From assembly GCA_944386175.1 (NCBI GenBank), contig CALXAB010000001.1, positions 47,645 through 111,644 on the forward strand: a stretch of DNA of 64,000 nucleotides. The letters are read 5' to 3'. Shown here one piece after another: positions 35,451 to 58,560 of the stretch (within the stretch, counting starts at the first letter, position 1; every line of letters starts with the position of its first letter). The stretch is from an uncultured Clostridia bacterium (GTDB lineage Bacteria > Bacillota > Clostridia > TANB77 > CAG-508). The notes beneath the pieces were generated by a model. It ran no database searches, was not told the origin of the DNA, and saw only the letters and a list, made by a program, of their open reading frames with translations. A program made the translations under genes and the position numbers.

Positions 35451-36125
35451 TTAAAATTCCCTTATATCATATCTAAAATATAGTCCATCCATTTTTATTT
35501 TATGAAAATCTTTTATTATATTTTCTTTGACTTTATTAAAATCTTTTCCTACTCTTCTTAATGCAAATACTCTACCTCCTGAAGGATATAGTATATTATT
35601 TTTTGATATTATATGTTCCCCTATAATATCTGTTGTATTTTTTACTTTGTTCATACCTAAAATTGGTTCATCAAAACTACTTCTTTCTACTTCTGGATAT
35701 CCTGCTGAAAATCCATACATTGCTATAGAAAAGCAGTCTTTTTTCCAACAATTATTTATCTTTTCTACATCTTCATAAAAGAAATTTATTATATCTATAA
35801 AAGGTTTATTCAGTAACCCTAATAAAGCTAACCACTCTGGATTACCTGTTCTTGTATTATATTCTAATACATATACTTTTTTATCTTCGGTAACCATTAT
35901 TCCTATATATAAAATATAGTTATATTCCATATTTTCTTTTTTCATACCTCTTATAGTTGGTTCTATTATATCTTTTTTTAATTGTTCTTCTTTTTCTGTG
36001 CTAACTCTTGCATAAGCACATACTCTTAAATTACCTTTTATAACTTCTCCTGTTGTTCTATTAATTCTTCCTTTTTTCTTCTCTATTACTTGTACTTTCA
36101 AATTTAACCTCTCTTTCTCAAGCAT
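35451..36125 (-). pseudogene. purD: Chimeric ORF: the first 46 codons of a large serine recombinase fused in frame to the 3' about 177 codons of phosphoribosylamine--glycine ligase (purD)
   Basis: Residues 1-46 (and the upstream DNA) are near-identical to the start of the recombinase at 48681-50573 up to ...ARVSTEKEEQ. From about 35983 downstream the product (IIEPTIRGM...VLEYNTRTGNPE...PSGGRVF) is the PurD C-terminal half. No purD 5' half is in the window. Confidence 0.7.
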
Positions 36126-36168
36126 AGAGAATCTTTATGTTTGTATTATATACTAAAATTTTATATTT

Positions 36169-36354
36169 TTAAATACCTATGTGGATTAAATTATATTCTT
36201 TTAAAATATTTTGTTTTAGTTCTAAATATCTTTTCTCTTTAATTAATCCTGCATTATATGTTTTATTTAGAATTGCTATTTTAATGCTACAATTAAAAAT
36301 ATTTTCATTTAGTTTTACATTTTTCGTATTATCAAATTTTACTTCGTACAACAT
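36169..36354 (-). CDS. SHOCT-like small protein (61 aa), partner of the recombinase
   Basis: GLIKEKRYLELKQNILKEY resembles the SHOCT motif. Near-identical to 50617-50802. Always sits immediately upstream of a recombinase gene. Confidence 0.5.
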   Translation of the reverse strand: MLYEVKFDNTKNVKLNENIFNCSIKIAILNKTYNAGLIKEKRYLELKQNILKEYNLIHIGI

Positions 36355-36519
36355 AAAAATCCTCCTCTGCTTGAATTAAATTTCAAAAAAGAGCGACAAA
36401 AAAGCCAGCCGGCTAGCTAGACTGACTTCTTTGTCTTACATTTTTTGATAATACAATTATATTATGCTGTTCTATAAAGTTCAATTCCCGTTTTTTTCCC
36501 TTTTTTCTATTTTAATTGA

Positions 36520-36890
36520 TAAAGCGTTGACTTTTTAGTTAGTACACTAAGTAAACTTGTGTAAAAATTTTTTTAATTATTTTTTACTTTATTATTTTTG
36601 AGTTCACTTAGTGTACTTTTTGTTTTGTATTTAAAAACCTTAGTTCACTTAGTGAATAAAAAACTAACTTTCAAGTACACTTGGTGAACTTTTTCTTAAA
36701 AATCACTTATTTTTCGTTCATTTAGTGAACTTTTGCACTCTCAAAGGCATTTTTTAGCTGTTCATTCGGTGAATTTCCGCATCAAATTTGCTTAAAATTT
36801 TTGTTCTTTTGTTAACTCTTGAAGGCTTGTCCTTCAATGTGTATAGGCGATGTGTGCACACTCGCTTTCCTGCCTTTAGTATTGTTTTTT
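36520..36890. repeat. Repeat locus B: six GTTCAC-N3-GTGAAC-like palindromes plus the T element
   Basis: Palindromes at 36541-55, 36601-15, 36642-56, 36674-88, 36715-29 and 36759-73. T element at about 36789-36878 with stem 36828-34/36840-46. Confidence 0.85.
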
Positions 36891-36891
36891 A

Positions 36892-38670
36892 TCATATATT
36901 AATTACTTTTTGTTGACTCATATATAATTTATAATAATTTCCTTTTATGCTCATTAATTCTTCATGAGTTCCATATTCTACTATTTCTTTATCTTTAATA
37001 AAAAATATTCTGTCACTATCCACTATTGTAGATAATCTATGAGCAATCGTTATTACAGTTTTATTTTTAACCATTTCTTTTGTTAGATTTTGTAGCATTT
37101 TTTCTGTTTTTACATCAATCTTACTTGTTGCTTCATCGAAGATTAATATTTTAGGGTTATTAATAATTGTTCTTATATAGCATAATACCTGTTTTTCTCC
37201 ATCTGATAGATTTTTTCCATTACTACTTAATTTTGTATTGTATCCATCTTCTAAACTCATTATCCAATTATGTACATTCAATCTTTTACATATTTCTATT
37301 ACTTTATCATCAGTTATATTTTCATTTCCATATTTTAAATTTTTCATAATGCTTGTACTAAATAAGTAATTTTCTTGTTGCATAATAGCTATCTGTTTTC
37401 TAAGTCTATTTAGTTTTATATTTCTAACATCTTCTCCATCAATAAAAATATTTCCTGAATCTATATCATAAAATCTTCCAATTAGATTTGTAATAGTGGT
37501 TTTTCCACTTCCTGTACTACCTACAATAGCTACTTTTTCTTGCGGTTTTACTTTAAAAGATATATTATTTAAAACTTTATTATTTTCTATATAAGAAAAA
37601 CTAACATTTTTAAATTCTATTTCACCTTTTATTTTGATGTCTTTAGCATCTATTTTATCTTTTATATCTATTTTTTCATCCATTGTTTCAAATATTCTCT
37701 CTAAATATGTAATTGAATTAATAAAATCATCTAATGTTTTAAATAAGTCTTCTATAGGTTGCCAAAAGTTAGATGAATAACTTCCCATAGCAACAATAGT
37801 TCCAACTGATGTAGTTGGATATAAAAACATCGCTCCTACAAAATATATTGTTGCAGTTACCCAATGTGACATTGTTTGTACACTACACCATCCAATATTG
37901 CCAAATTTTATTTGTTTGCAACTTGCATCTTTCCAACTTCTACTTAAATCATTAAATATATCTTCATTCTTTTCTTCTCTATTAAATGCTTGGGTTATTT
38001 GCATTCCTTTTAATGTTTCTAATAGATATGCATTAGTATTAGAATTTTTATTATTAATTAGTAATTTATTTTTTCTCTTTATCTTAGCTGTTGAAGCAAA
38101 TATAAAAATAAGTATTACTATTCCAACTAATGCGATTAATGTTAGTTTCACACTTGTTAAAAACATAAATATCAGAATAATAAGCATATTAAATATGTTT
38201 AAAAATGTTGTTACTAATTTATCTGTAATTAGAGTAGAAACATCTTCTGCATATTCTGTTAGTCTAACTAGTATTTTTCCATGAGGTCTTGTGTCGTAAT
38301 AATTAACTGATAAATACTGAATATGTGAAAACAAATCATTTTTTATATCTTCTACAATATTTTGATTTACTTTAGCCAACATTTTTTTATACACTTTAGT
38401 TACAATAATAGACAATAATACTAAAAATAATGCTAATAATATTATGATAAACAATTTTTCATAATCGCTATTAGGAATAACATCATCGATTACATATTGT
38501 AGTATTTTAGTGATAAATAAAGTAGCTATAATAGATATACAATTTAAAATAAATATAATAATCAATTTTGATTTATATTTTTTTATGTATGTTAAACCTC
38601 TTTTATAATTAGAAAGACTGAATGAAGTATTTTTTTCATCTTGGTCATATTTGTTTACACTCATATACAT
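36892..38670 (-). CDS. ABC transporter, fused permease/ATP-binding protein (type I exporter)
   Basis: Six-TM N-terminal domain. Walker A GSTGSGKTT. Signature LSDGEKQ. Confidence 0.85.
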   Translation of the reverse strand: MYMSVNKYDQDEKNTSFSLSNYKRGLTYIKKYKSKLIIIFILNCISIIATLFITKILQYVIDDVIPNSDYEKLFIIILLALFLVLLSIIVTKVYKKMLAKVNQNIVEDIKNDLFSHIQYLSVNYYDTRPHGKILVRLTEYAEDVSTLITDKLVTTFLNIFNMLIILIFMFLTSVKLTLIALVGIVILIFIFASTAKIKRKNKLLINNKNSNTNAYLLETLKGMQITQAFNREEKNEDIFNDLSRSWKDASCKQIKFGNIGWCSVQTMSHWVTATIYFVGAMFLYPTTSVGTIVAMGSYSSNFWQPIEDLFKTLDDFINSITYLERIFETMDEKIDIKDKIDAKDIKIKGEIEFKNVSFSYIENNKVLNNISFKVKPQEKVAIVGSTGSGKTTITNLIGRFYDIDSGNIFIDGEDVRNIKLNRLRKQIAIMQQENYLFSTSIMKNLKYGNENITDDKVIEICKRLNVHNWIMSLEDGYNTKLSSNGKNLSDGEKQVLCYIRTIINNPKILIFDEATSKIDVKTEKMLQNLTKEMVKNKTVITIAHRLSTIVDSDRIFFIKDKEIVEYGTHEELMSIKGNYYKLYMSQQKVINI

Positions 38671-40379
38671 TCCTCCATATTATTTACTTGAATATCATAA
38701 ATTTCTTTATATTCTCCATTCTTATTCAATAATTCTTCATGTGAACCACTCTCTATGATTTCTCCGTTTTTCATTACAAATATGACATCAGCATTTTTTA
38801 CAGAAAGAATTTTTTGTGCAATTATAATTTTTGTACATCTATATTTCAAATTATTAATATTTTCAGTAACTTCTAATTCAGTTTCAAAATCTAGTGCGGA
38901 AGTTATATCATCTAATATTAATATACTAGGTCTCTTAGCTAATGCTCTTGCCAAAGATAAACGCTGTTTTTCACCTCCTGATAAACTCACTCCATTTTCT
39001 CCTATTATTGTATTAATATCCTCTGGTAAATCAAATACATAATCAGCTTTAGCCAATTTTAAACATTTTTTTATTTCTTCTTCTTTTAAATCTTCATTTC
39101 CAAAACTAACATTATTGGAAATAGTATCAGAAAACAGAAAAGGAGTTTGAGAAACATAACCGATATTTTTTCTTAATGATTTTAATGTATATGTATTTAT
39201 TAAATTATCGTCTATTTCTATCTTTCCACTTGAACATTCTATCAGTCTTAACATCAGTTTTCCAATAGTAGATTTTCCACTCCCTATTTCTCCAATAAAT
39301 GCATAAGTCTTATTGGGCTTTAAATCTAAATTAATATTTTTTATAACTTTCCTATTATTAAGTTTGACATTAACCCCTTTAAAAATAATATTTTCCCAAT
39401 TATTTAATATTAAACTTCCTTTATCTTTTATTTTAGGTTCAGTTTCTAATAATTTTCTTACTTTTGATACAGATACTCTAAATTGTTGCCATTCATTTAT
39501 AAAACCACTTAATTCTATAAACGGTTTTCTTATAGTGCCTATAAAAGAATTAATAATAATAAATTGTCCCATTGTCGTGTAACCTTTTATAACAAATATT
39601 CCCCCAAATAAAGTTAATAATATTTGCATACAATATGATAAAAATGTGACTATATTGTCATAAGAGATATTCATATTTTGTATTTCTAAATTCTTATTTT
39701 TCAAATTTCTATTCTTTACTTTAAAGTTATCTATTTCTTTTTGTTCTGTTGCAAATGTTTTGATTAATCTATTTCCTTCTATATTTTCTTGTATATAATT
39801 ATTTAGGTTTGACAAACTTTCTCTTTGATCTTTATATAATTCCTTTGATTTTTTTATATGTTTTTTAGATATAACTGCAATTATAGGAGTAGGTATTAAA
39901 ATAATTAGTGTTAAAATTGGGTTTATATATAGGCAGTAAATTGTAGTTAAAATACTAGTAGTTAACATGCTTATAGATTGTTTTATCACAAAACACATAT
40001 TATGATGAATAATGCTATTATCTGTTGTTAAAAGCGTGCTTATTTCTCCCAAAGTTTTTTCTTCGTAAAAATCTTGATTTAATTCATTCAATTTTTTATA
40101 ACATTCAACTTTTAACTTATGTGCTAAATTAAATCTAACATGATCCATTATTAATATTCCAAAATAAGTTATCAGCCTACCTATAAAATACATACTAATA
40201 GATATAATAAAAAGGTATGGAATAATAGAAAAATTACTCTCATATATACCTTTATCTATTATTTCTCCTAATAGTATAACTGGTAATATTTTAGAAATTC
40301 CTCCACCTAATATTATCATTAAATTTGAAATCCAATATCTAAAATTATATTCTTTAATAAATTTTAATACCCATCTCAT
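38661..40379 (-). CDS. ABC transporter, fused permease/ATP-binding protein (partner half-transporter)
   Basis: GEIGSGKST, LSGGEKQR and ILILDD motifs. Overlaps the downstream partner gene. Confidence 0.85.
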   Translation of the reverse strand: MRWVLKFIKEYNFRYWISNLMIILGGGISKILPVILLGEIIDKGIYESNFSIIPYLFIISISMYFIGRLITYFGILIMDHVRFNLAHKLKVECYKKLNELNQDFYEEKTLGEISTLLTTDNSIIHHNMCFVIKQSISMLTTSILTTIYCLYINPILTLIILIPTPIIAVISKKHIKKSKELYKDQRESLSNLNNYIQENIEGNRLIKTFATEQKEIDNFKVKNRNLKNKNLEIQNMNISYDNIVTFLSYCMQILLTLFGGIFVIKGYTTMGQFIIINSFIGTIRKPFIELSGFINEWQQFRVSVSKVRKLLETEPKIKDKGSLILNNWENIIFKGVNVKLNNRKVIKNINLDLKPNKTYAFIGEIGSGKSTIGKLMLRLIECSSGKIEIDDNLINTYTLKSLRKNIGYVSQTPFLFSDTISNNVSFGNEDLKEEEIKKCLKLAKADYVFDLPEDINTIIGENGVSLSGGEKQRLSLARALAKRPSILILDDITSALDFETELEVTENINNLKYRCTKIIIAQKILSVKNADVIFVMKNGEIIESGSHEELLNKNGEYKEIYDIQVNNMEECI

Positions 40380-40960
40380 TTATATTTTTTCTCCAATATT
40401 TATTATATTTTTATATTACTTTTCATATTCTATCATAATTTTATTTCTTTCTCAATAAAATTATAAAGTTTCAAAATATATTTATCCTTACATTTGCTTA
40501 ATTATGAAAAAATCCGCAATAGAAATAATGTCAAGAGCGAGTGATAATGAGTTTATTTACTCTTGATATTATTTTTATTGCAGATTAAATTTACCCTGCA
40601 AATGTATGAGGCAAAAAATAAGTATCAGTACATATCTACCGACACTTAAATTTATAAAGATTCTCTATTACTTATTTCATAAATTCTTTCTAGCAATTGA
40701 AATAACTGATAATTTTACATATCTACAATTAAACACAACCTATATATGTCATGCTTATCATAGACACAATCTCAAATTCCCTAGTATTTCAAACACTTCT
40801 ATCAATTTTCTAAAATTTAATTTATGTGTTTCCACTTACCACATCTGCAACTACTTTAACTTTCACATCTGAATTTTGATGTTTTTCTCTTCCATATCTT
40901 CCTTTTTTCTCGAAAGTTATAATCTCTGAAAACATATCAAATTCAAGTATTACCTGTCCT
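40380..40960. other. Conserved non-coding E region downstream of recombinase 2. It holds a 26-bp imperfect inverted repeat with a 23-nt spacer (40512-40585) and about 400 bp that are about 90% identical to 58140-58560
   Basis: Direct comparison of the two stretches in the window. The only ORF here (40606-40872, plus strand) is not conserved in the second copy. Confidence 0.7.
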
Positions 40961-40963
40961 GTT

Positions 40964-42679
40964 TTAGTTGTAGCACTGCCACACATTCCACATGTGTTGG
41001 TCATCTCTGGTTGCAGTAAGTTTTAAATGTTGTTTATCTCCTGTTGCAGTAAAATTGTCTTTACAATTTATTTCTGTTCCGTTTTTACAAATAAACCTTA
41101 TTGTATATGGATTTATTGTACCATTTTCTAATGTTTCCCCAATTATTACTTTCTCTATTATACATTCAAAAATATCTTTATCAAAATTTTTCATTATTTC
41201 CATATCTTTAAATAAACCTTTAAACTTGTTTAATCTATGTTTAATACTTTCATTTCTGTTTGTGTCTTTTAGTAGGTTTTGTATTTTCTGTTCTACTTTT
41301 AATAGTTCTATGTTTAGCTCATCATATTTTAAAGTATATTGTTCTTTATTTATTCTGCCTTCTAAGTTTAGTTCTAATAGATTATTAAGTTTCTTGTTTA
41401 TTTTCTCTTTGTCTTTTTCTAGCTTATTTACTACTGTTTCTGTAGTATTTTCTTTTAAGACATTTTCTATTTTTTCTAAAAAATCTTCTACTACTTTTTT
41501 ATTGTTGTTACAGAGTATTCTATATCCTTGTACAAAACAATCTTCTAGTATTTCTTCTGGTATTGCTTTACAGTATGGGCATTCTTCTTTTCCATGTTTT
41601 GCTCTTTTGATACATTGCCATACTGCTTTTTCATATTTTCTTTTTGAGTTCCAGTTTCTTCTTGTAAGTAAGCTACCACAAAATCCACAATATAATTTAC
41701 TACTAAAAGCATATTTCTTACTATAGTTATTATTTCTTCTTCCTGTTTCTCTTGTTCCTACTCGTTTTATTCTTATTTCTTGTACTCTATCAAATAACTC
41801 TTTACTAATAATTGGCTCATGATGTTCTTTTATATAATGCTTTTCTGCTTCTCCTAAATTGCTTAATCTTTTATGTGATATTGGATCTATTGTAAATGTT
41901 TTTCCCATTAGCACATCTCCAATATATTTTTCATTTTTTAGTATTCCTCTTATTGTTGATTCGTTCCAATTATCATTACCTTTTGGGGATTTAATGCCTT
42001 TTGCTTTTAGTTCTTTTGCTATTGTACTTGAACCTATTCCGTCTACATATCTTTCAAATATATATTTTATAACTTCTGCTTGTTCCTCATTTATAGTTAT
42101 CTGTTTTGTTATTAAATCATAGTTATAACCGTAACAACCATTATAGCCAATTAACTCTCCCCTGTCTTTCTTCATTTTTAGTCCAAGCAATACATGTGAA
42201 GATATGTTCTCACTTTCTTGTTGTGCCATAGCACTTAATACTGTTAGTAGCATTTCTCCTGTTCCTGATAGAGTATTTAGATTTTCTTCTTCAAATAAAA
42301 CTGCAATGTTCTTTTCTTTTAGCATTCTTACATATTTTAAAGTATCTAATGTGTTTCTAGCAAATCTTGATATGGATTTTGTTAAAATCATATCAAATTT
42401 TCCAGACATTCCATCTGTTATCATTTTCATAAAGTCTGTTCTTTTAAAATCTAATGTGCCACTTATAGATTCATCTGCATATATTCCTGCAAATTGCCAT
42501 TCAGATTTGCTATTGATTTTTTCATCATAATACTTTAATTGTGATTGGTAACTATTTAATTGTTCTTTATTTCCTGTACTAACTCTACAATATGCACATA
42601 CTCTTAATCTTTCTTTGATTGTTGTACCTGTTACTCTGTTAATTCTTCCGTTTGTTTTCTCTATGACTTGAATTTCCAT
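40964..42679 (-). CDS. Large serine recombinase (resolvase/invertase-type catalytic domain plus recombinase and zinc-ribbon domains); C-terminus frameshifted
   Basis: RVCAYCRVSTGNKEQ is the catalytic Ser region. 571 aa. The last about 58 residues are encoded in another frame (ORF 40822-41004, similar to the C-terminus of the recombinase at 48681-50573). The shift is near 41018-41029. Confidence 0.8.
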   Translation of the reverse strand: MEIQVIEKTNGRINRVTGTTIKERLRVCAYCRVSTGNKEQLNSYQSQLKYYDEKINSKSEWQFAGIYADESISGTLDFKRTDFMKMITDGMSGKFDMILTKSISRFARNTLDTLKYVRMLKEKNIAVLFEEENLNTLSGTGEMLLTVLSAMAQQESENISSHVLLGLKMKKDRGELIGYNGCYGYNYDLITKQITINEEQAEVIKYIFERYVDGIGSSTIAKELKAKGIKSPKGNDNWNESTIRGILKNEKYIGDVLMGKTFTIDPISHKRLSNLGEAEKHYIKEHHEPIISKELFDRVQEIRIKRVGTRETGRRNNNYSKKYAFSSKLYCGFCGSLLTRRNWNSKRKYEKAVWQCIKRAKHGKEECPYCKAIPEEILEDCFVQGYRILCNNNKKVVEDFLEKIENVLKENTTETVVNKLEKDKEKINKKLNNLLELNLEGRINKEQYTLKYDELNIELLKVEQKIQNLLKDTNRNESIKHRLNKFKGLFKDMEIMKNFDKDIFECIIEKVIIGETLENGTINPYTIRFICKNGTEINCKDNFTATGDKQHLKLTATRDDQHMWNVWQCYN

Positions 42680-42881: not shown

Positions 42882-43100
42882 TTACAAAAGTTTATAATCT
42901 TTTAAGATTTTTCTTTTTATTTCAATATATTCTGAATCTAGTATTAAGTTTTCTCTAAACAAATTATTTAAAAACAATAATTCCATGCTACAGTCTAGCA
43001 TATTATTATCTTTTAGTTGTTTAGAGTTATCTACTTCTATTTTATAATTATGTAGCATGAAATTGCTCCTTTTCTTTAAATTTGAAAAGAAAAAGAACAA
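42882..43100 (-). CDS. SHOCT-like small protein (divergent paralog)
   Basis: ENLILDSEYIEIKRKILKDY motif. Same position relative to the recombinase as 36169-36354. The start is possibly the internal Met (MLHNYK, about 43058). Confidence 0.45.
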   Translation of the reverse strand: MFFFFSNLKKRSNFMLHNYKIEVDNSKQLKDNNMLDCSMELLFLNNLFRENLILDSEYIEIKRKILKDYKLL

Positions 43101-43229: not shown

Positions 43230-43620
43230 TTTATAAGTACACTAAGTAAACTAAAAATTGTATAATTTTAAATTGCAGTTCACTTGGTGTACTAGAAAAA
43301 TATAACAAAAGTTCACTAAGTGTATTTGTAAATTTTGTTTTATTTTCACATTCACTTAGTGAACTAAATTCAAAAATATTATTCAATATCAAGTACACTT
43401 GGTGAACTTTTTCCCAAAATAAGTGAATTTTTTTAATTTTTTAATTCACCATTTTTAATTTTGAACGAAGAATAGCGGGTTTGAGCCAGTTCACCGAGTG
43501 AATTTTTACATCATATTTGCATAAAATTTTTGTTTTTTTATTAACTCTTGAAGGCTTGTCCTTCAATATGTATAGGCATTTTGTTAAGAATGCTATCCTG
43601 CCCTCATTTTCAATGAGGTA
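43230..43620. repeat. Repeat locus C: seven palindromes (one widely spaced) plus a T element with a variant second hairpin
   Basis: Palindromes at 43237-51, 43278-92, 43311-25, 43350-64, 43393-407 and 43489-503, plus GTGAAT-N14-ATTCAC at 43424-49. T element at about 43519-43600. Confidence 0.85.
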
Positions 43621-43788: not shown

Positions 43789-45240
43789 TTAACTATTTAT
43801 AAAAAATTGAATTATTGCAAATATTCCCATATCTGAAATTGTTTTTATTGCATCTACATTAGCAATAACTTTATAAGGGTGATGAATTACTAAATCTAAA
43901 TAGTTTTTCATTCCTTCATTATTAAAACATGTCTCCCATGCTCTTGAAATAGTATCGTCATCAATAAGATTTTGTTTATCTATTGATATTTTATTTATAA
44001 TCTTCTCTAATCTCAAGTCCAAATTATTATTTGCAGATTTCCATTTTTCCCATTTTCCTTTGTTTATTAAAAAATAGATGCTTGATTGTTCTAATAATGA
44101 GCGGATTAAAAAGCAATATGATATTGGGTAATTTTTATATAAATTTCCAAATGATAAATGCTGAATTTCATAGCATAGATTTTTAATCCCTTTAGCTCTA
44201 TCATTACTATATTTTAGTTTGCTACAATTAATATTTTTAAATAAAATACTATTGTCTTTTCTTGTTAATCTGATTTTATTAAATGCTATACTTTCATTTA
44301 TTTTATTTTTTACTATTTCACTTTCATTGGCATTATTATGTTTTTCTTCTCTACCATTAGAAAATATCTTCATTTGTTCATTTTTATTTTCTAAATTTTC
44401 ATTTATTTTATCTTTGCTGTCAAACCTTTCACTAACATTATTTTCTATATTGCCATACAAATATTTTTCTATATTAGCATTATTTTTTATTGTGTTACTT
44501 GTAATCCTACCACTTACAATATCTTGAACAATTCGTAATACTTTCTTGTCTAATTCATTTATTGAAGACAATGGCATTAAAACATTGTTATTAAAAGAAA
44601 TATTCAGATATTCTTTACCAACTTTTGAAGAAACAATCTTTTCAAACTTATTTACTGAAAAATTATTGTCAACTCCATCAAATGCTTTTTTACAAAATCC
44701 TTGTAATTGTGAAAATATATTTTTTACTCCCATTTTATCTTCAAATCTTTTTATTGAAGCTGTATCCCATTTTAAAGCTCCTGTATCAGTTGTATGTACA
44801 TTTCTTATATATCCAGCACAATCTTCAAATGAAGTGGCCACATAACAAGGAATTTGAAAATATTCTTCTCCTTGAATTCCTGCACTCATTGCATATATGC
44901 TTCTTATTTGTGTATATGAAAAGTATTTAAAAGATTCTACCAATTTAGGATTTTTTAAGATTTTCATTGCTGTTAATCTTCTATTACCATCCCATGCCAC
45001 AAATTTTTCTTTTTTCTCATCATAAGTGACTGTAACTATTGATTGTGGATACCAACCATTTGTGTAAATATCACTAATTAACTTATGCATTGCCTTCGCT
45101 TCTTTAGAATTTCTCACCAATTGTTGCATTATAAAAAGTTCATCCGCTATCATAATTTGTGTATGTCTTGGATTCTCTGGATTTACTAATATTTTTTCTA
45201 TGTCTATTAGTTGATGTTCTCTCATATATAATTCCCCCAT
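43789..45240 (-). CDS. ParB/sulfiredoxin-fold (ParB N-terminal domain) protein with a long uncharacterised C-terminal region
   Basis: VNPENPRH and VAWDGNRRLTAMK resemble ParB boxes I and II (GxxRxxA). The likely start is the ATG at 45225, preceded by TGGGGGAAT. Confidence 0.6.
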   Translation of the reverse strand: MGELYMREHQLIDIEKILVNPENPRHTQIMIADELFIMQQLVRNSKEAKAMHKLISDIYTNGWYPQSIVTVTYDEKKEKFVAWDGNRRLTAMKILKNPKLVESFKYFSYTQIRSIYAMSAGIQGEEYFQIPCYVATSFEDCAGYIRNVHTTDTGALKWDTASIKRFEDKMGVKNIFSQLQGFCKKAFDGVDNNFSVNKFEKIVSSKVGKEYLNISFNNNVLMPLSSINELDKKVLRIVQDIVSGRITSNTIKNNANIEKYLYGNIENNVSERFDSKDKINENLENKNEQMKIFSNGREEKHNNANESEIVKNKINESIAFNKIRLTRKDNSILFKNINCSKLKYSNDRAKGIKNLCYEIQHLSFGNLYKNYPISYCFLIRSLLEQSSIYFLINKGKWEKWKSANNNLDLRLEKIINKISIDKQNLIDDDTISRAWETCFNNEGMKNYLDLVIHHPYKVIANVDAIKTISDMGIFAIIQFFINS

Positions 45241-45294
45241 TTTTTACCTTATAAAGTCTTTCGTAAATCCCTCATCATTCTTAAGTATATTATT

Positions 45295-46812: not shown

Positions 46813-46842
46813 ATGTCCGTTTTTTCGGACTTATAAAATTTT

Positions 46843-47259: not shown

Positions 47260-47282
47260 TGATAAGACCTCCTCTTACATTT

Positions 47283-50616: not shown

Positions 50617-50802
50617 TTAAATACCTATATGAGTTAAATCATATTCTTTTAAAATATTTTGTTTTAGTTCTAAATATCTTTCCTCTTTAATTAGTCCTGC
50701 ATTATATGTTTTATTTAGAATTGCTATTTTAATGCTACAATTAAAAATATTTTCATTTAGTTTTACATTTTTCGTATTATCAAATTTTACTTCGTACAAC
50801 AT
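50617..50802 (-). CDS. SHOCT-like small protein (61 aa)
   Basis: Near-identical to 36169-36354. The 105-aa ORF-track model (to 50934) runs through a terminator hairpin and is probably over-extended. Confidence 0.5.
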   Translation of the reverse strand: MLYEVKFDNTKNVKLNENIFNCSIKIAILNKTYNAGLIKEERYLELKQNILKEYDLTHIGI

Positions 50803-50832
50803 AAAAATTCTCCCTTGCTTAAATAAAATTTC

Positions 50833-50880
50833 AAAAAAGAGCAATAGAAAAAGCCAGTCGGCTAGCTTCGACTGACTTCT
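50833..50880 (-). terminator. Putative rho-independent terminator (stem CAGTCG/CGACTG with a GCTAGCTT loop, then a U-rich tract on the minus strand)
   Basis: Read directly at 50855-50874. The homologous position at 36.39-36.43 kb is degenerate. Confidence 0.35.
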
Positions 50881-50979
50881 TTGTCTGACATTTTTTGATA
50901 ATACGATTATATTATGATGTTCTATAAAGTTCAATTCCCGTTTTTTTCCCTTTTTTCTATTTTAATTGATAAAGTGTTG

Positions 50980-51350
50980 ATTTTTTAGTTAGTACACTAA
51001 GTGAACTTGTGTAAAAATTTTTTTAATTATTTTTTACTTTATTATTTTTGAGTTCACTCGGTGTACTTAGTTTTTTATTATATCAATTTTTAGTACACTT
51101 AGTGAACTAATTATAAATTATTTCATAAAATTTAGTACACTTGGTGAACTTTTTCTTAAAAATTACTTATCTTTCGTTCATTTAGTGAACTTTCACACTC
51201 TAAAAGAGATTTTTTAGTCATTCATTCGGTGAATTTTTGCATCAAATTTGCTTAAAATTTTTGTTCTTTTATTAACTCTTGAAAGCTTGACCTTCAATGT
51301 GTATATGCGTTGCGTGATGCACGCTATCCTGCCTTTAGTGTTCACTTTAT
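50980..51350. repeat. Repeat locus D: six palindromes plus the T element (about 95% identical to locus B)
   Basis: Palindromes at 50992-51006, 51052-66, 51093-107, 51135-49, 51176-90 and 51220-34. T element at about 51251-51345 with stem 51279-85/51291-97. Confidence 0.85.
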
Positions 51351-51355
51351 ATCCT

Positions 51356-53209
51356 TTAATTAGTATTAGATTCTGATGTAGTTTTATTTACAACACCCAA
51401 GTTCTTAATACTATCTTGTAAACTTTCATCTGGAATAAAGTTTCTACAATTTTCTAATTTATAAAATTCCCCTAATTTATCTATATCTTTATATAAGAAA
51501 TAAAAATAGTTTTTTAATGCATTTTCTGTTGTTTCTAATCTAGGTCTTAATGAGTATGCTCTTTTCTTCTTATAGAAATAGTTTTCATTAAATAATTTAT
51601 ATAAATTATTTAGTTCATCACTATCTAATGTTATTTTGTGAAATCTCGTTTCTTTGAAAATATAATTTATTTTATCAATGTCTATATTTAAATCATCAAC
51701 ATATTCTCTAATGTTATTCTTGCTTATTATAGTTATTATAGATAATGTAATACTCATAATTATATAATCCATAAATTCTTTTGATAAATTCATTGTCCTA
51801 AATATTTTTATTGATCTAATATCATTGTTTTCAATCATTTTTAAAAACATTATAATGATTGGTTCACCCTTTATAAGATATGGTATAAATATTTCTTCTT
51901 CATGTATATTTTTTCTTTGCAGAAAATCATTAATACTTCTATCTGGAAATTTTTCCCTATGTTCCATTAATCTAATATTATCGTATAATTCTTCTAGTAC
52001 TCTGTACTTTTCATTTTTAGTTAAATTCTTATTTTCAATAACACATGTATATACAGATTCTAAATATCTATTACTAGTAAACATATATATAGAATCATAT
52101 TTATATAATCTACAATAGCTAAAATCTATAACATTTTCATATAGAAAAATTAAATACATATCTAATTTAATAATTCTCCATACAAGATTTATATATTCTT
52201 TTTCTTGACTTTCAGTTTGAATATATTTTATTTTATCTATTAAATTTGCAATATTTTGCATTTTATAATCATCATGAACAGGCACAAATTCATAATAAGC
52301 AAACATTGTATAAAGTTTACAATATATATTTGCAGCCTCTATATGTTTATTATATAAAATCAAATGCGAAACTATTTCATGTATAGCACTAATCAAATCA
52401 CTTCTAAAAATCATTTCTGTATAATATTCTTGAAGAATTTTTTTGTTATTAAATAAAGTTAAATCTATAAGATTCATTATGTTGTGAATATTATAATTAT
52501 AATCATTATCATTTTTTTGTATTAATACTAATGTTTGATTCTTTAAGTCTGTGATATCTTTGCACCCATGGCTATTTAGAGGAATCGCCTTTTTTATATG
52601 CTTCTTTTGTTTCTCTAAATACATACATAGTAAACTGTTTCCAAACCAATTTTTATGAGTGTAAAACCAAATCATTTTAATACACATATAAAATATAACT
52701 ACAAGAGAAAGCAAAAAATTTATTAATATTAGTATTTGACTACTGCCTTTTAGGCATTGTATAATATTTACAAATAATAGGAGAACTAAAATTATAAAAA
52801 TTTTTAGCAATGATAAAAAACTATTGTTAGGGAAAATAACATTAATATGTTTTTTTCCCAATATATAACTTTCAGACAACCCAGATAATAAAGATATTAC
52901 TGAAATTATTATCAATGTATTACTAATTTGAGCTACTAATATATCATTTGAATCAATGTTAAATTCTTTATTCAAGTCTAATATATTTTCAATTTTGTAA
53001 TCATTAATAGCATAAAAAATTACAAACATACTAAATATAACTATACTAAACATAAAAATAATCATTAAAAAATTCATAATTTTTTGTTTAACTACAAAAT
53101 ATTTTTTATTATCATATATTTTATACCATTTTAAAAATTCTTTTATTTTATAATTTTTATTTAAAATAAATCTTCTTATTTTTTTTAATTTACCATTAGA
53201 ATCTTCCAT
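51356..53209 (-). CDS. Hypothetical 617-aa protein: N-terminal multi-TM region plus a large soluble domain
   Basis: Several hydrophobic helices in the first about 200 aa. No recognisable motifs. Located downstream of the AbiE pair. Confidence 0.45.
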   Translation of the reverse strand: MEDSNGKLKKIRRFILNKNYKIKEFLKWYKIYDNKKYFVVKQKIMNFLMIIFMFSIVIFSMFVIFYAINDYKIENILDLNKEFNIDSNDILVAQISNTLIIISVISLLSGLSESYILGKKHINVIFPNNSFLSLLKIFIILVLLLFVNIIQCLKGSSQILILINFLLSLVVIFYMCIKMIWFYTHKNWFGNSLLCMYLEKQKKHIKKAIPLNSHGCKDITDLKNQTLVLIQKNDNDYNYNIHNIMNLIDLTLFNNKKILQEYYTEMIFRSDLISAIHEIVSHLILYNKHIEAANIYCKLYTMFAYYEFVPVHDDYKMQNIANLIDKIKYIQTESQEKEYINLVWRIIKLDMYLIFLYENVIDFSYCRLYKYDSIYMFTSNRYLESVYTCVIENKNLTKNEKYRVLEELYDNIRLMEHREKFPDRSINDFLQRKNIHEEEIFIPYLIKGEPIIIMFLKMIENNDIRSIKIFRTMNLSKEFMDYIIMSITLSIITIISKNNIREYVDDLNIDIDKINYIFKETRFHKITLDSDELNNLYKLFNENYFYKKKRAYSLRPRLETTENALKNYFYFLYKDIDKLGEFYKLENCRNFIPDESLQDSIKNLGVVNKTTSESNTN

Positions 53210-53265
53210 ATTTTGCTCCCATTTTCATATATTCATTTAATTATTCTATGTATGTAGTTATTAGA

Positions 53266-54111
53266 TTATTTTTTTAATTCATTCTTTATTTCTTCTAATA
53301 CTCCCATCGTATCTTCATAATTAATATCTTCTGCATAACTAAATTTAGATTGATAATTCTTCCAATGCTCTTTCAGAACATCACTTTCTTTTATAACTTC
53401 CATTATCTCATTTATATTATTTAATTTATCCATTGAACCTCTATATTCAAATTTCTTCAATATAGCTTGTCCTAATAATTCTTTATTAAAATTTTGTTGT
53501 TGAGTAGTCCATAATATATAAATATCATAAAAATCTCTCGCTCTTGTAGTATCTATATTTCTTGATATAATTGTTTCAAATTTATCAGCTATTACTGTTT
53601 CCATATTATATGCTAATATTTCTATTGAACGATTTTCAAACATTAAATCGAACTTATAATTTACTTCTTTTGGAACAATTACATCTCCTGTTGTTATATC
53701 TAATTTCATTGGTACAACTAACTTATCAAATTTAGCATCTAAAGCTACTCTGTATCCTCCATATTCATCTTCTTGTCTTATTTCTTTTATACTTCTAAAT
53801 TCAAATGCTACTCCATCATCTAAATCTATATTAAAAATTTCATTTAAGATATTTTCAAGATTATCCTTTTCTAAATCAAATCCTTTTATCGTTGCATCCA
53901 TATCAAGAGTATTTCTCATGTCTATTCCAACTATTGCTGTTATTAACATTCCTCCTTTTAATACAAATTTATATTTGTATTTTGATACCGAAATTCTTTC
54001 CAATAGTCTTTCTAGCATATAGTTTTGTAAAATAATGTTTTCATTCACATCTACTTTATCTGACATATTCTTTATCCATGCTTTTAATTGTGCTCTATTT
54101 TTTGCTATCAC
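53266..54111 (-). CDS. abiEii: AbiEii/AbiGii-family nucleotidyltransferase toxin (intact)
   Basis: KGGMLITAIVGIDMRNTLDMD is the NTase motif. 281 aa. A 4-nt overlap (ATGA) with the upstream antitoxin gene. Confidence 0.75.
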   Translation of the reverse strand: MIAKNRAQLKAWIKNMSDKVDVNENIILQNYMLERLLERISVSKYKYKFVLKGGMLITAIVGIDMRNTLDMDATIKGFDLEKDNLENILNEIFNIDLDDGVAFEFRSIKEIRQEDEYGGYRVALDAKFDKLVVPMKLDITTGDVIVPKEVNYKFDLMFENRSIEILAYNMETVIADKFETIISRNIDTTRARDFYDIYILWTTQQQNFNKELLGQAILKKFEYRGSMDKLNNINEIMEVIKESDVLKEHWKNYQSKFSYAEDINYEDTMGVLEEIKNELKK

Positions 54112-54701
54112 AATAACACCTCCAAGTATTTTCTTACTTCATCTTCAATATTAAATAATTTTGCATATTTGTGTAGTTTAATAGAGTTTCTATCTTTTCT
54201 TTCAGCATATCTTTTCATCGCATCTGTAAATAAGGCAATTTCTATTTTTTTCTTATTTCTGATAATGTCACATATTGTTCTCTCTAAATCATAAACTTTA
54301 ACTTTGTTTCCATATGGTGTATTCATTTCTATTATTCCTAATTCATATAATTCATCTTTTAAATAGAAAAATTGATAGTTTCTATCTTTTAGTAATTTAG
54401 TATTATAGTAACTAGGTATAGTCAATTGATATTTTATGGGAGTTCTATCACATAAATCATGAAAATACAAAGCTGTCTCATGAGAGAATATCCCTTTTTT
54501 ACAAATTGCTTGTGTGATAAAATAATTATCTTCAAATGTATCTGCTCCAATATATACTCCTCTTGCTACTCTATCTATCAATCCCTTTTCTATCATCCTT
54601 GTTAAAATCTTATTATTTATCCCAATATCTTCTACTTGATATGTTTCAATCACTCCATTATTATTTTTTAATAATTTTTCTACTTTTTCTATATCATCCA
54701 T
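54108..54701 (-). CDS. abiEi: AbiEi-family antitoxin / regulator (intact)
   Basis: Paralog of 13551-14153. Operonic with the toxin. Confidence 0.75.
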   Translation of the reverse strand: MDDIEKVEKLLKNNNGVIETYQVEDIGINNKILTRMIEKGLIDRVARGVYIGADTFEDNYFITQAICKKGIFSHETALYFHDLCDRTPIKYQLTIPSYYNTKLLKDRNYQFFYLKDELYELGIIEMNTPYGNKVKVYDLERTICDIIRNKKKIEIALFTDAMKRYAERKDRNSIKLHKYAKLFNIEDEVRKYLEVLL

Positions 54702-54810
54702 AAATTTTCTCCTTTGCCGTTTTCATTCGTAAATATTATATCATTTACGAATAAAAACGGCAACAATATTTAAAAAATTAATAGCACAAAATTAAAATTT
54801 GTGCTAAAAT

Positions 54811-55296
54811 CTAACTTTCAAAGTAAAATGCTAACCTTGAATTATTTCTAATATATTTCTCCTCAAAATTATTATTTGTAAAATTTTTTATAGTCTTTCT
54901 CCAAAATTTTTGAGCTCTTTCATTTTTTAATAATGTTCTAACTTCCCATTTTCCTTTATATAACTCAAACATTTTATTTGCCATATATGTACCTGCTCCC
55001 ATTTTTCTATACTTGTTAAGAATAAAAAATTCAGCTATTTCGTTCATATTTTCTTCATTAAATCTATGTAAAACAAAACCTGCTAATTCATTATCACATT
55101 TTAATATATATGGATGTCTATTTTCTTCTTGCCAGTATCTTTCAACATATTTATTCATTACATATAATCCAGAATCTAGCATTGTAAATGTTGCTGTCTC
55201 ATCTTCAAAAAAGCTAAGCTCATATGTATATAATTGCATTAAATTATATATTATATTTTTGTCTTTTTCATCAACTTTTATTAAATCAAATCTCAT
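54811..55296 (-). CDS. GNAT-family acetyltransferase
   Basis: A size of about 160 aa. Motif A-like RKMGAGTYMANKMF. Confidence 0.5.
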   Translation of the reverse strand: MRFDLIKVDEKDKNIIYNLMQLYTYELSFFEDETATFTMLDSGLYVMNKYVERYWQEENRHPYILKCDNELAGFVLHRFNEENMNEIAEFFILNKYRKMGAGTYMANKMFELYKGKWEVRTLLKNERAQKFWRKTIKNFTNNNFEEKYIRNNSRLAFYFES

Positions 55297-55325
55297 TTTC
55301 TTCTCCTTATTTAAATAATAAAAAA

Positions 55326-55949
55326 CTATTTTTCAATTTCATTATCATATATACTTTTATATTCTTCAAACTTAGCCTTTGCTCTTGGTAGTCCTGCATC
55401 CACTGCCATCTTTAAATAATATTCTGATAATCTTAAATTTTTCTCTGTTCCAACTCCATTATAATAAAAATTTGCTCCTAAATCATAAATTGCTGGAAGA
55501 TGTCCTTGTATTGCACAGTCATGTATTAATTCAAATGCTTTCTTTTCATCTCTTTCAATATTTCCAAATCCAAAATAGTAATAAGCTCCTAAACAAAATT
55601 TTGAAAATGCTTGTCTTCTCGGTGTTTCTTGTTCTTCATTTATAAGACTTAATAGTGATTCATAAGCCTCAATATGTATCTGTTTTGCTTTTTCTTTATC
55701 TTGTTCCACTCCATCTCCAAAATGATAGCAAGCACCAACTCCATATGCACAACGAGGATCTCCTAAGTCTTTTCCTTTTTCATACCAGTACATTGCTTTT
55801 TCAAAACTTTGCTCTGCTCCATTTTCTTGACTATCATAACTTCTTCCTAGAATATAGCACGCAAGTCTATCTCCATTTTTAGCTTTCATTTCTAAATCTT
55901 CTATGTTAAATATCATTGGCTTTATTATATTATTCACTTTTAGCTTCAC
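55326..55949 (-). CDS. Sel1-like (tetratricopeptide-like) repeat protein
   Basis: Repeated AxxWYxKAAxxGxxxAQ-like units (YWYEKGKDLGDPRCAYGVGACY, LIHDCAIQGHLPAIYDLGANFY). Confidence 0.55.
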   Translation of the reverse strand: MKLKVNNIIKPMIFNIEDLEMKAKNGDRLACYILGRSYDSQENGAEQSFEKAMYWYEKGKDLGDPRCAYGVGACYHFGDGVEQDKEKAKQIHIEAYESLLSLINEEQETPRRQAFSKFCLGAYYYFGFGNIERDEKKAFELIHDCAIQGHLPAIYDLGANFYYNGVGTEKNLRLSEYYLKMAVDAGLPRAKAKFEEYKSIYDNEIEK

Positions 55950-56481
55950 CTAATTTCTTTAATAAAATATATCTTTTTATATTTTCATCTTTTTTATACC
56001 AAGTTTGTTCCTCATATCCTAAGTCTTTTAAATTTCTTAAACTATAAATATTTCCAAAAGTTACTTCTGCAATAATGTTACTTATTCCTTTTTCTTTAGC
56101 CCTTCCTTCAAGATATTTTACTAATGTTTTCTGTAATCCATATCCTCTATACTCTGGTAATACAATAACTCCATCTATATCAGCACAATTACCTTTGATA
56201 TTTGTAATCATTTGCTTTAATTCTTTCATTCTGCTTGAAACTGATAAAAAAATCCATGCAATCATTTTATTATCTATAAAAGCACCATATATCTCTCCAT
56301 CATTTATAGGGTTGTTTAATATCCTTAAATATGTTTCTTTTTTAAAAGGTAAAAAATAACCTTTTTCCTCCTCTTTAAAATTATCTATTACAATATTTTG
56401 AATATTATATATGTCATCAACGTCATTCGAATTGCATTTTCTAATTTTTAGTTTTTCCTTAGAAAATTGATTAATTTCCAT
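55930..56481 (-). CDS. GNAT-family N-acetyltransferase
   Basis: Motif A: VLPEYRGYGLQKTLVKYL. Confidence 0.7.
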   Translation of the reverse strand: MEINQFSKEKLKIRKCNSNDVDDIYNIQNIVIDNFKEEEKGYFLPFKKETYLRILNNPINDGEIYGAFIDNKMIAWIFLSVSSRMKELKQMITNIKGNCADIDGVIVLPEYRGYGLQKTLVKYLEGRAKEKGISNIIAEVTFGNIYSLRNLKDLGYEEQTWYKKDENIKRYILLKKLGEAKSE

Positions 56482-56498
56482 ATTTTAATTCACCTTCG

Positions 56499-57494
56499 TT
56501 ATTTTGTTTTTTCAAAAATATCACTCCAAAAGTCATTGTTGCTAAATTCTAATCCTTTTTCACTTTCATAATACCAAAATTTATCTTCTTCCGATATTTC
56601 TCCTTTACTCATCAAATGACTTAACTGTAAAATTCCCATTGCATTTGCAATATCAAATAATATTGGAAATACTTCTTTTTCATAGCTTGTCAATTTATTA
56701 TATTTCTCATACTCATTTAATATCATCCTTATCTTGTTTTTGGTATCTTCAGTATCATTTGGGTTTAAACATAAGTTACAACTACTTACAGCTAAATCAA
56801 TAATTCTAGGAAGATAATTTGACACTGCAAAATCTATTATCCATAATTTTCCATTATTATCTTTCATAACATTTGTACTTATTATATCTCCATGTGTAAA
56901 AGCATGTGGTAATTTTTGCATATCAATATTTTTAAATTTTACTATCAATTCATTTAACCTTGTGTAATCATTTTCACTTAAATGTTGTTTTTTATCCTCA
57001 AACTCTTGTGCAAAATTTATAATTGCCCATTTGTCATAAATAAACTCTGAATCTAATTTTTGGTTATGTATAATCGCCATTTGTCTTATAATTTCTTTTA
57101 TTTCTTCTTCACTTGGAATAATTCCTAAATCAAAAAAGCTATTACCATTTATGTACTGAAATACACATAATCTATATTTGATATTTTCTATTTCAATTAC
57201 ACATTCACTTTCATTATTTACTTTATACAGTTTTGGTGTATTTATTTCTGTTTTTTCTGCTAATTCAATTCTCTCAATATAGTTTTTACAATCTGTATCT
57301 GTTCTTTCTTTATGAAATATTTTTACACAATATTTTCCTGTTGTTGTCTTTAATATATAATTGAAATCTTCATACCCAACTGTAATAATCGTATCTGATA
57401 CATATTCTCCTAAATTATACATATTACATATATGTTTTGAAACTGTACTTAAATCAGTGTTTAGATTAATCCTATCTTTAAATTCTTCTTCCAC
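56499..57494 (-). CDS. Aminoglycoside/choline-kinase-type phosphotransferase (APH family)
   Basis: HGDIISTNVM...WIIDFAVS shows the Brenner catalytic motif and a DFG-equivalent. Confidence 0.7.
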   Translation of the reverse strand: MEEEFKDRINLNTDLSTVSKHICNMYNLGEYVSDTIITVGYEDFNYILKTTTGKYCVKIFHKERTDTDCKNYIERIELAEKTEINTPKLYKVNNESECVIEIENIKYRLCVFQYINGNSFFDLGIIPSEEEIKEIIRQMAIIHNQKLDSEFIYDKWAIINFAQEFEDKKQHLSENDYTRLNELIVKFKNIDMQKLPHAFTHGDIISTNVMKDNNGKLWIIDFAVSNYLPRIIDLAVSSCNLCLNPNDTEDTKNKIRMILNEYEKYNKLTSYEKEVFPILFDIANAMGILQLSHLMSKGEISEEDKFWYYESEKGLEFSNNDFWSDIFEKTK

Positions 57495-57500
57495 TAATAT

Positions 57501-57833
57501 TTATACCTCCATGTACCATTGTTTAAGAAATATACATTTATTGCTCTTATTTAATTTTATTTGATATATCATGTCATATAATATTGTATCTTTCAAAATA
57601 AAATTAACTATACAACATTCATCATTTTCACATAGTATATTGAACTCAATATCATTTGTGTTTTGCCCTTTTATTTCTTCCCATATTTCTCTAATTTTTT
57701 TCATGTTATTTATTTTTTCTATAGGCGACTCATAATACTCCACTTTTTCATCAAATAAGTTAATTATCTTGTCTATATCTTTCTGTTTCCAATTATTTAG
57801 TAATTCATCACACCATTTATAATAATCTCTCAT
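57501..57833 (-). CDS. Hypothetical protein (110 aa)
   Basis: ORF only. Confidence 0.35.
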
Positions 57834-57939
57834 ATTCTATTCTCCTAATCTTTACTGTATATAATATATCATAAATTCCTTAATTTTACAATGAAATCGC
57901 CAATATTTTAATATTACATATATCTTTACATTTGCTTAA

Positions 57940-58560
57940 CTACCCCAAAATCTCCAATAGAAATAATGTCAAGAGCGAGTGATAACAAGTTCATTTACTC
58001 TTGACATTATTTGTATTGGAGATTAAAATTGCTTTGCAAATGTATAGCACAAATTTTTCGCTTTTTTCGTGATATAAAATTCCATCGGACGAAAATTTCA
58101 ATTTTTTCGTCCGATAAATTTTTATAAGCCGAATTTCATTAAATTTTCGTCCTATAAAAAATAAGCATCAGCAGATATCTACCAACACTTAAATTTATAA
58201 AGATTCTCTATAACTTATTTCATAAATTCTTTCTAACTATTAAAATAACTAATAAATTCACATATCTACTAACCACCTCAACCTATATATGTTTTTCTTG
58301 CCATAGATACAATCTCAAATTTCCTAGTATTTCAAACACTTTCATCAATTTTCTAAAATTTAATTTATGTGTTTCCATTTACCATATCTGCAACTACTTT
58401 AACTTTCACATCTGAATTTTGATGTTTTTCTCTTCCAAATCTACCTTTTTTATTAAAAGTTATAATCTCTGAAAACATATCAAAATCAAGTATTACCTGC
58501 CTTTCTTTAGTTGTAGCACTGCTACACACTCCACATGTGTGGTCGCTTATAAATTCAATT
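57940..58560. other. Second copy of the E region: 26-bp IR pair (57950-58023), a roughly 100-bp insertion holding a perfect 12-bp IR hairpin (58084-58115), the conserved non-coding stretch, and a remnant of a recombinase 3' end (about 58380-58556, no start codon)
   Basis: Aligned directly against 40500-41000. The remnant translates to ...CGVCSSATTKERQVILDFDMFSEIITFNKKGRFGREKHQNSDVKVKVVADMVNGNT*. Confidence 0.7.

Follow-up and report, generated by a model that had tools for sequence, protein, structure and literature searches.

Streptococcal integrative and conjugative elements (ICEs) that carry a single serine integrase integrate in the rumA gene, with direct repeats located both there and within the gene for the integrase (Ambroset et al. 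2016, PMC4701971). The 3' parts of the two genes are exchanged reciprocally with a change of frame, and the excised form encodes a different integrase C-terminus; CTn5 of C. difficile has also moved into rumA (PMC4701971). Integrative and mobilizable elements (IMEs), too, occur in rumA, and tandem accretion with decayed partners has been reviewed (Guedon et al. 2017, PMC5704250). Here we describe an array of three modules in a 64,000-nucleotide stretch of DNA from an uncultured Clostridia bacterium (the window; assembly GCA_944386175.1, contig CALXAB010000001.1, positions 47,645 to 111,644). Judged by its sequence, namely the recombinase domains, the attachment (att) core and an att site within the recombinase gene, the locus is a member of the family of large serine recombinase (LSR) elements that target rumA, and its mechanism is one already known. 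The array very probably arose by head-to-tail accretion of elements with a single large serine integrase directed at the 3' end of rumA, and then decayed by deletion at both ends.

All three modules lie on the minus strand and share one layout: a tail/E region, cargo, a T motif, palindromes, a small SHOCT-like open reading frame (ORF) and an LSR. A first-pass annotation of this DNA had reported the same architecture three times over, head to tail and with different cargo, and self-BLASTN and domain searches bear it out. The core sequence CATGTGGA(G/A)TG occurs in the 3' part of recombinase genes at 58537, 48853 and 40994; the window holds exactly these three cores, one per module boundary, against 0.11 expected. 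The core encodes HVECV, the C-terminus of RumA (a 23S rRNA m5U methyltransferase), and its short form is CATGTGGAGTG. The modules, their cores, recombinases and E regions are as follows.

58537 to 48854, minus strand: module Z, bounded by att cores.
48853 to 40995, minus strand: module Y, bounded by att cores.
40994 to 35982, minus strand: module X, with a core at one end and truncated at the other.
58524..58537, minus strand: att core at the left end of module Z, CATGTGGAGTGTGT, encoding HVECV.
48840..48853, minus strand: att core at the Z/Y boundary, CATGTGGAGTGTTG, within the recombinase Z ORF at residues EPCGV.
40981..40994, minus strand: att core at the Y/X boundary, CATGTGGAATGTGT.
48681..50549, minus strand: recombinase Z, 622 amino acids from a TTG start; the body (50549-48854) lies in module Z and the last ~57 codons, past the core, in module Y.
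40964..42679, minus strand: recombinase Y, 571 amino acids, ending ...QHMWNVWQCYN before the stop, with the core read in a different frame.
P arm of recombinase Z beside the core: ...GGGTGTGAGC; E region of Z after the core: TGTAGCAGTGCTACAAC.
P arm of recombinase Y beside the core: ...GATGACCAACA; Y tail after the core: TTGCTCGGTGCT.
57852..58537, minus strand: E region of Z, comprising a rumA-like 3' end (HVECVAVLQLKKGR, then stop), a tail-like ORF, a conserved non-coding stretch and a hairpin.
58374-58541, minus strand: tail-like ORF in the E region of Z, ~55-60 codons in another frame, homologous to the recombinase C-terminal tail.
40416..40994, minus strand: E region of X, with a 60-amino-acid tail-like ORF at 40822-41004; 89.5% identical to the E region of Z.

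Database relatives, comprising 120 recombinase proteins (identifiers beginning with P) and about 110 fetched loci (identifiers beginning with L), fix the position of the junctions. The E region starts at the same nucleotide in every aligned locus and is 80-86% identical at the nucleotide level across species. Upstream of it the alignment has a sharp conservation boundary at CA(T/C)GTGGA(G/A)TG, and the sequence to the left is unrelated from locus to locus, being one of at least three recombinase types, rumA directly, or other DNA. Z-type recombinases that are at least 85% identical part ways directly after ...SEPC(G) into many different tails or stops. In the window, recombinase Z crosses the core, which lies ~170 nt ahead of its stop codon, into module Y and gains a 62-amino-acid tail that is 32% identical to the ORF in the E regions.

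Insertion in rumA itself is seen in related loci. In L033 the order is murD, a TRAM plus U5-methyltransferase gene of the rumA/rlmD type that ends ...DMFPWTSHVECVAVLQLKQDM, then E, cargo, T motif, small ORF and recombinase; in L035 the E region is likewise fused to the 3' end of a TRAM plus uracil-5-methyltransferase gene; and in L094 (Aliicoccus) one core in rumA and another at the recombinase end form an 11-bp direct repeat around an element of ~9.8 kb. The first ~23 nt of E are identical to native rumA 3' ends. At the opposite side, rumA ends that look native (HVECV..VLNLK, then stop) come after the terminal recombinases of six loci (L103, L030, L029, L037, L055 and L038), and past these ends L037 and L055 have the same host flank. 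The core is also shared by more distant relatives, at ~50% identity, from Bacillus, Paenibacillus and Aliicoccus. A partition of the modules that assigns E to the upstream recombinase was rejected, because in L033 and L035 no recombinase stands between rumA and the E fused to it, and because terminal recombinases occur without E. The recombinases of L052, L053, L054 and L103 (about 45-53% identical) have a C-terminal tail of their own and end ~200 nt before the core, unlike the Z-type ORF, which crosses it; the att site and the tail-coding region have thus shifted relative to each other during the evolution of the clade.

In the mechanism that we propose, each element is laid out as att core, tail/E region and cargo, then T motif, palindromes and small ORF, and last the recombinase and a second att core, and crossover would occur within or next to CATGTGGA(G/A)TG, inside the 3' part of the recombinase ORF, so that integration would separate the body of the recombinase from its C-terminal tail region. 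Since E begins with ~23 nt of the native rumA 3' end, each integration should rebuild an attB-like site (B-P') beside rumA, where the next element would insert, pushing the older ones away. Such rebuilding of attB would explain the stacking of the modules and would make X the oldest and furthest-decayed of them; we infer, rather than see, this order of insertion and any present-day mobility. The first-pass annotation had proposed serial insertion into a junction within the recombinase: serial, site-specific accretion stands, as does a junction inside the ORF, with recombinase Z taking its last 62 amino acids from Y, and it is the 5' location of that junction that has to be given up.

Several observations weigh against the mechanism just outlined. 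The rumA gene is absent from the 64-kb contig and we did not find the array physically inserted in it there, so anchoring in rumA is taken from the relatives; neither an excised circle nor an empty site of this species was seen. The internal junctions are attR-like on both sides of a module, and canonical LSR rules may bar internal excision, in which case the array may now be immobile. Some recombinase genes are mosaic, which shows that the arrays are remodelled by homologous recombination as well. The tail ORF of Y-type genes is not in frame, and any function for tail swapping is therefore not general. Finally, the crossover is placed to the level of the core and not to the exact dinucleotide.

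A block that covers the T motif, the palindromes, the small ORF and the first 40 recombinase codons (35965-36883 in X and 50415-51342 in Z) is 90.8% identical over 934 bp, while the small ORF of Y is of a divergent type, and the earlier report that small ORF and recombinase 5' region are near-identical in X and Z and divergent in Y is thus upheld; so is its figure of only about 70% identity for the recombinase bodies, which we measured at 71.4% between Y and Z (41060-42678 against 48930-50548). The E regions of X and Z are 89.5% identical over 40613-41002 and 58156-58544, and 78% in a second block (40416-40607 against 57852-58045). An E region had been ascribed to each module; Z and X have one, and Y lacks it at the DNA level, though the C-terminal 62 amino acids of recombinase Z are homologous. 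The second E block contains an inverted repeat (hairpin) of ~76 nt at 57949-58024 and 40511-40586, placed after the tail ORF and ahead of the first cargo gene, that could be a terminator or a regulatory element. Both full recombinases, Y and Z, contain PF00239 Resolvase, PF07508 Recombinase and PF13408 Zn_ribbon_recom, with the catalytic serine in the motif YARVST or YCRVST. By these identities the backbones of X and Z, ~90% identical, are sisters whose conserved E and T blocks enclose unlike cargo, and Y belongs to another lineage.

The simplest account of why X and Z differ in cargo would be homologous exchange between the E and T blocks, which are conserved; the mosaicism of the recombinases supports it. 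An origin of the whole array mainly by homologous recombination or duplication among the E, T and recombinase blocks of one island would draw on the same evidence: mosaic recombinases with breakpoints at about residue 80 (P0007), 150 (P0066, P0067 and P0070) and 320 (P0104), E and T blocks that enclose variable cargo and whose conservation between species is 80-90%, and frequent microhomology deletions. We regard such an origin as unlikely, because in many species, and beside unrelated left flanks, the boundaries of the modules fall to the exact nucleotide on the core derived from rumA, and because recombinases Y and Z, at 71% identity, are too divergent for a recent duplication; recombination of this kind is a better account of cargo swapping and decay than of how the array arose.

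The first-pass annotation had placed the crossover elsewhere. In its model the core lay in the 5' end of the recombinase, at about codon 40-46, sister elements inserted serially, internal recombinase genes were 5'/3' hybrids, and a 46-codon recombinase stub fused to purD was the attR. A fusion of this kind exists at the end of module X.

35982..36101, minus strand: stub of recombinase X, 40 codons, 117/120 nt as in Z, ending at the deletion junction.
35451..35981, minus strand: 3' part of a purD-like gene, ~177 codons, ATP-grasp, fused in frame to the stub; part of a his-like cluster.

The ORF at 35451-36125 joins a recombinase N-terminus, with the catalytic serine in YARVST, to GARS_A/GARS_C, and it matches positions 235-419 of the 425 in the purD model. 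Homologues of the recombinase begin at MKVQVIE, so that the TTG/ATG there is the likely start, and the TTG is preceded by the ribosome-binding site GAGAGG; the stub therefore has 40 codons and not 46, and the gene to which it is fused is a divergent purD-like paralogue in a his-like cluster. In favour of a crossover at this point, the similarity of X to Z stops sharply at codon 40, the two being alike over 117 of 120 nt and unrelated thereafter, and a cut at codon 40 leaves X and Z ~90% identical on both flanks; a partition at the 3' core explains the latter equally well. A step in identity at codon ~46 is not found when Y is compared with Z, where successive 60-nt windows are 71, 80, then 70, 71 and 65% identical, with no step at nt 120; nor is there an att-like motif at the X junction or, by eye, dyad symmetry around codon 40. 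Throughout the 120 relatives the first 40 amino acids continue with a body of the matching type (Z with Z, Y with Y), which argues against 5'/3' hybrids, and the mosaic genes break elsewhere. Truncated or fused recombinases have many different junctions (P0044, P0046, P0049 and L032), others are joined to Schlafen (P0063), NUDIX (P0065) or ParB-domain (P0058) proteins, and none of the ~110 fetched loci holds a second junction at codon 40. The window lacks the 5' half of the purD-like gene as well as the panC-like gene and, upstream of them, the hisS-like gene, and we found no reproducible 5' junction with reciprocal fusions to the halves of a target gene. A split at codon 40 would, moreover, part the catalytic serine from the rest of the enzyme, and the gene has another, well-supported att site at its 3' end. 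With no conserved core and with junctions that vary in position, the codon-46 model counts as refuted, and we give it a very small probability.

At the joint between stub and purD-like gene there is only a 5-nt microhomology, TTAAA (35981-35977), revealed by the purD-like gene of L015. That gene was our comparator for an empty site, the search for close purD relatives having otherwise given fragments only; it is uninterrupted save for a poly-A frameshift and lies in a cluster of hisS-like, panC-like, purD-like, hisZ, hisG and further genes. A pseudo-att event at codon 40 was considered and rejected, as nothing there resembles the core. To judge from the sequence, the joint is an ordinary deletion, which would have run from codon 40 of recombinase X into the purD-like gene across TTAAA. 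The varied junctions of fused or deleted recombinases in P0044, P0046, P0049, P0058, P0063, P0065 and L032 lend support to a deletion at the stub. In P0063 a Z-type recombinase is joined to a Schlafen-like C-terminus that matches a gene of module Y in the window, consistent with a deletion inside an array of the present type. P0063 and P0065 are independent fusions that break at the same residues, directly after ...KENIIEEA, where P0063 has IEEAL microhomology; this part of the zinc-ribbon/coiled-coil region may be a deletion hotspot.

The other end of the array is also a deletion junction, for it retains a trace of a further recombinase.

58538..58550, minus strand: remnant of the 3' end of a fourth recombinase (type W), 13 nt, ATAAGCGACCACA.

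In L021, L022, L025 and L036 the sequence ...ATGA(A/G)CGACCACA, followed at once by CA(T/C)GTGG, closes an in-frame recombinase ORF directly upstream of the same E region, whereas in the window the 13 nt give way to host flank that lies downstream of the gene for an ABC-2 permease, whose stop is at 58598. A deletion upstream of module Z would thus have left 13 nt of the fourth recombinase. The deletion proposed at this end by the first-pass annotation is correct on this evidence; the ~60 codons (58374-58541) that it had taken for the remnant belong to an ordinary module left end, that of Z. What stands upstream of module Z differs in other strains (L021, L022 and L025), and on these comparisons the array comprises at least three elements here and at least four elsewhere. 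Modules without a recombinase, or extra cores, were also observed (core, tail, ~1.5 kb, core, E; L027 at 11697-13337, L037 at 15504 and L011 at 1098); these mini-modules indicate decayed members resembling cis-mobilizable elements (CIMEs), with frequent internal loss of the recombinase.

As the window is essentially a metaSPAdes contig from the ENA (ERZ2916176 NODE_270), the repeats might in principle have been created by assembly: X and Z share exact repeats of more than 100 nt, and several other assemblies break at the X/Z repeats. A chimeric contig is the least probable of the explanations considered here, scarcely to be credited, given that the order Z, Y, X and stub::purD-like recurs within single contigs of independent samples (ERZ2641816 NODE_1181; L105-L109; L020-L022) and that the fusion protein P0121 is present on eight contigs from three sources. 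Contigs assembled independently therefore span the array, and it is real.

Between the cargo and the recombinase each module has a region with T motif, palindromes and small ORF, of which a further partial copy stands alone in the window.

50850..51349, minus strand: control region of Z, with the T motif at 51349-51114 and five 15-bp palindromes at 50992-51190.
50934-50906 and 50869-50850, minus strand: promoter-like site and terminator-like hairpin of module Z.
50617..50802, minus strand: small ORF of Z, 61 amino acids, SHOCT-like (sub-threshold).
43237..43602, minus strand: T motif (43602-43498) and six palindromes of Y.
42882..43058, minus strand: small ORF of Y, 58 amino acids, divergent type (SHOCT_2 E 0.012).
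36169..36880, minus strand: T motif (36880-36674), five palindromes (36542-36730) and small ORF (36354-36169) of X.
20108..20323, minus strand: solitary T motif with two palindromes (20109-20164), no small ORF and no recombinase, among defence-like genes.

The palindrome GTWCAC-N3-GTGWAC has 18 copies, against 0.02 expected, all within modules save the two beside the solitary T motif. The T motif, of ~125 nt, forms three helices in which 97% of cells are paired and compensatory double changes affect five pairs (18 cells), values reached in 0/500 shuffles; G-U wobbles are strand-specific, favouring RNA on the recombinase-sense strand. It is 80-90% conserved across species and stands upstream of the operon of small ORF and recombinase. 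No Rfam family was found in the window at gathering scores, and the E-value mode gave only chance miRNA hits on the palindromes; IMG/VR did not contain an exact 30-mer of the motif, and carriage by phage is thus not indicated. The small ORF lies directly upstream of the recombinase in about 25 loci: the 'SHOCT-like' gene of the first-pass annotation is a conserved small ORF, the label itself resting on a sub-threshold SHOCT_2 match (E 0.012). Taken together, T motif, palindromes and small ORF look like the control region of the recombinase operon, the small protein being a putative regulator or directionality factor and the palindromes its presumed operators. The T motif would be a structured RNA or a set of hairpins resembling an origin of transfer (oriT), and is a candidate non-coding RNA or oriT-like element that is possibly new.

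The cargo of the three modules is unlike.

51356..57833, minus strand: cargo of module Z, namely a SnoaL-like 110-amino-acid protein, APH, GNAT, a Sel1-like protein (faint), GNAT, AbiEi, AbiEii and a 617-amino-acid membrane protein.
43789..48506, minus strand: cargo of module Y, namely HD, a His_Phos-like protein (weak), a 138-amino-acid protein, a Schlafen/AlbA_2-ATPase and PD-Lambda-5_A.
36892..40379, minus strand: cargo of module X, namely two ABC exporter genes (ABC_membrane plus ABC_tran).

The AbiE pair of module Z is solid as AbiEi/AbiEii, and most other labels given earlier hold (APH, two GNATs, HD, Schlafen/ATPase and two ABC exporters, with Sel1 faint and His_Phos weak); the 'ParB-like' protein of module Y, of 483 amino acids, is PD-Lambda-5_A (E 8e-43). 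Neither Pfam nor NCBIfam gave a significant match to the small ORFs or the tail ORFs, to the 617-amino-acid protein or to the 138-amino-acid 'HIT-like' protein. Exact-protein look-ups with the 224-, 630- and 592-amino-acid ORFs, the last an ABC exporter, found no match, because gene callers choose other start codons.

The window has a GC content of ~25% and nearly every gene is on the minus strand. A spoIIIA operon on the contig marks the host as a spore-forming uncultured Clostridia bacterium of the human gut; the closest genomes are metagenome-assembled genomes labelled uncultured Clostridium or Clostridiaceae, plus Candidatus Merdicola. The window contains no tRNA genes, so the island is not one that targets tRNA genes. 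A second defence-like stretch lies at 12000-24000, with an AbiEi/AbiEii paralogue pair (12972-14153), VbhA/Fic, sigma-70, a metallophosphoesterase, a Lactamase_B/Apyc1-like protein and another AbiEii. It includes the solitary T motif, which self-BLASTN also picked out as an extra copy (20086-20323), but no recombinase and no att core; the stretch is probably a decayed module and its T motif probably the relic of one. The region upstream of yebC (11410-12129) is unlike between two contigs of one sample (L018 and L019).

At 24000-36100 the purD-like gene stands beside three HisS/HisZ paralogues, HisG, HisIE and a fusion of CntK_N (histidine-racemase-like) with GNAT, to which L015 adds a PanC-like ligase. 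From its gene content, the cluster looks like a specialised pathway for a histidine-derived metabolite rather than purine biosynthesis, and the deletion at the stub presumably inactivated it in this species. The purD-like gene has seven relatives among 5.8 billion proteins.

Our analysis corrects an attractive 5'-split mechanism and places the locus in a described family. Elements of the rumA type with serine integrases exist in uncultured human-gut Clostridia as small stacked modules, which shuttle anti-phage systems (AbiE and a PD-Lambda-5-like system), genes for aminoglycoside kinases and for acetyltransferases, and ABC exporters. For at least three integrase types, the att cores and P-arm sequences provide candidate LSR/att pairs that could serve genome engineering, and the T motif is a candidate new structured element tied to integrase control or mobilisation. 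It is conceivable, though we hold it to be doubtful, that the uncultured Clostridia of the gut harbour a distinct and widespread family of cargo-only LSR modules, which would extend itself by rebuilding a rumA-like attB and serve as an integron-like platform for defence and resistance genes. In such a family the T motif and palindromes would act with the SHOCT-like ORF as a new unit for control or mobilisation, either a structured RNA or an oriT mimic without a relaxase, and this unit would govern the choice between a tail-less integrated and a tail-bearing excised recombinase.

The systems that invite comparison differ from this locus in instructive ways. In SCCmec and other staphylococcal cassette chromosome (SCC) elements, the Ccr large serine recombinases insert cassettes at the 3' end of orfX/rlmH, the site is regenerated, and tandem composite islands form. 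Both systems have LSR-driven insertion in the 3' end of an rRNA methyltransferase gene, a regenerated site and varied cargo; the target gene of SCC is another one and its att site is not inside the ccr ORF, and against the CcrA, CcrB and CcrC equivalog models our recombinases score 82-133 bits, with cut-offs at 700-900. SSV1-type archaeal viruses have their att site in their own tyrosine-integrase gene, which is split near its 5' part; they are the analogue of the 5'-split model and, in this, unlike the present locus. The att site of the Myxococcus phage Mx8 (as cited in PMC4701971) lies inside its integrase gene, and integration replaces the C-terminus, as here, with the difference that the enzyme is a tyrosine integrase. 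Tandem accretion arrays of CIMEs, IMEs and ICEs, such as ICESt1/ICESt3, and SGI1 (Pavlovic 2004, Bellanger 2011, as cited in PMC5704250) are, as far as that review presents them, alike in that elements with the same site stack, older members lose their recombinase and each junction has an att repeat; the present locus shows this pattern in its three modules of one orientation, three cores and truncated recombinase X. Those arrays mostly involve tyrosine integrases at the 3' ends of tRNA or other genes, whereas here each module has its own LSR and the rebuilt target mimics rumA. The closest match remains the rumA ICEs and IMEs, with which the locus shares the LSR domain architecture, an att core made of rumA 3' coding sequence and repeated in rumA and inside the integrase gene, and a swap of 3' parts between rumA and integrase that changes the frame, the C-terminus of rumA being replaced. 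It differs from them in that the array in the window has lost its rumA anchor, in that arrays of at least three modules occur in uncultured low-GC gut Clostridia, and in that the modules, of 5-10 kb, lack conjugation and relaxase genes; their cargo is instead defence systems (AbiE and a PD-Lambda-5-like system), APH/GNAT or ABC exporters, and they have in common the conserved T motif, the array of palindromes and the small SHOCT-like ORF.

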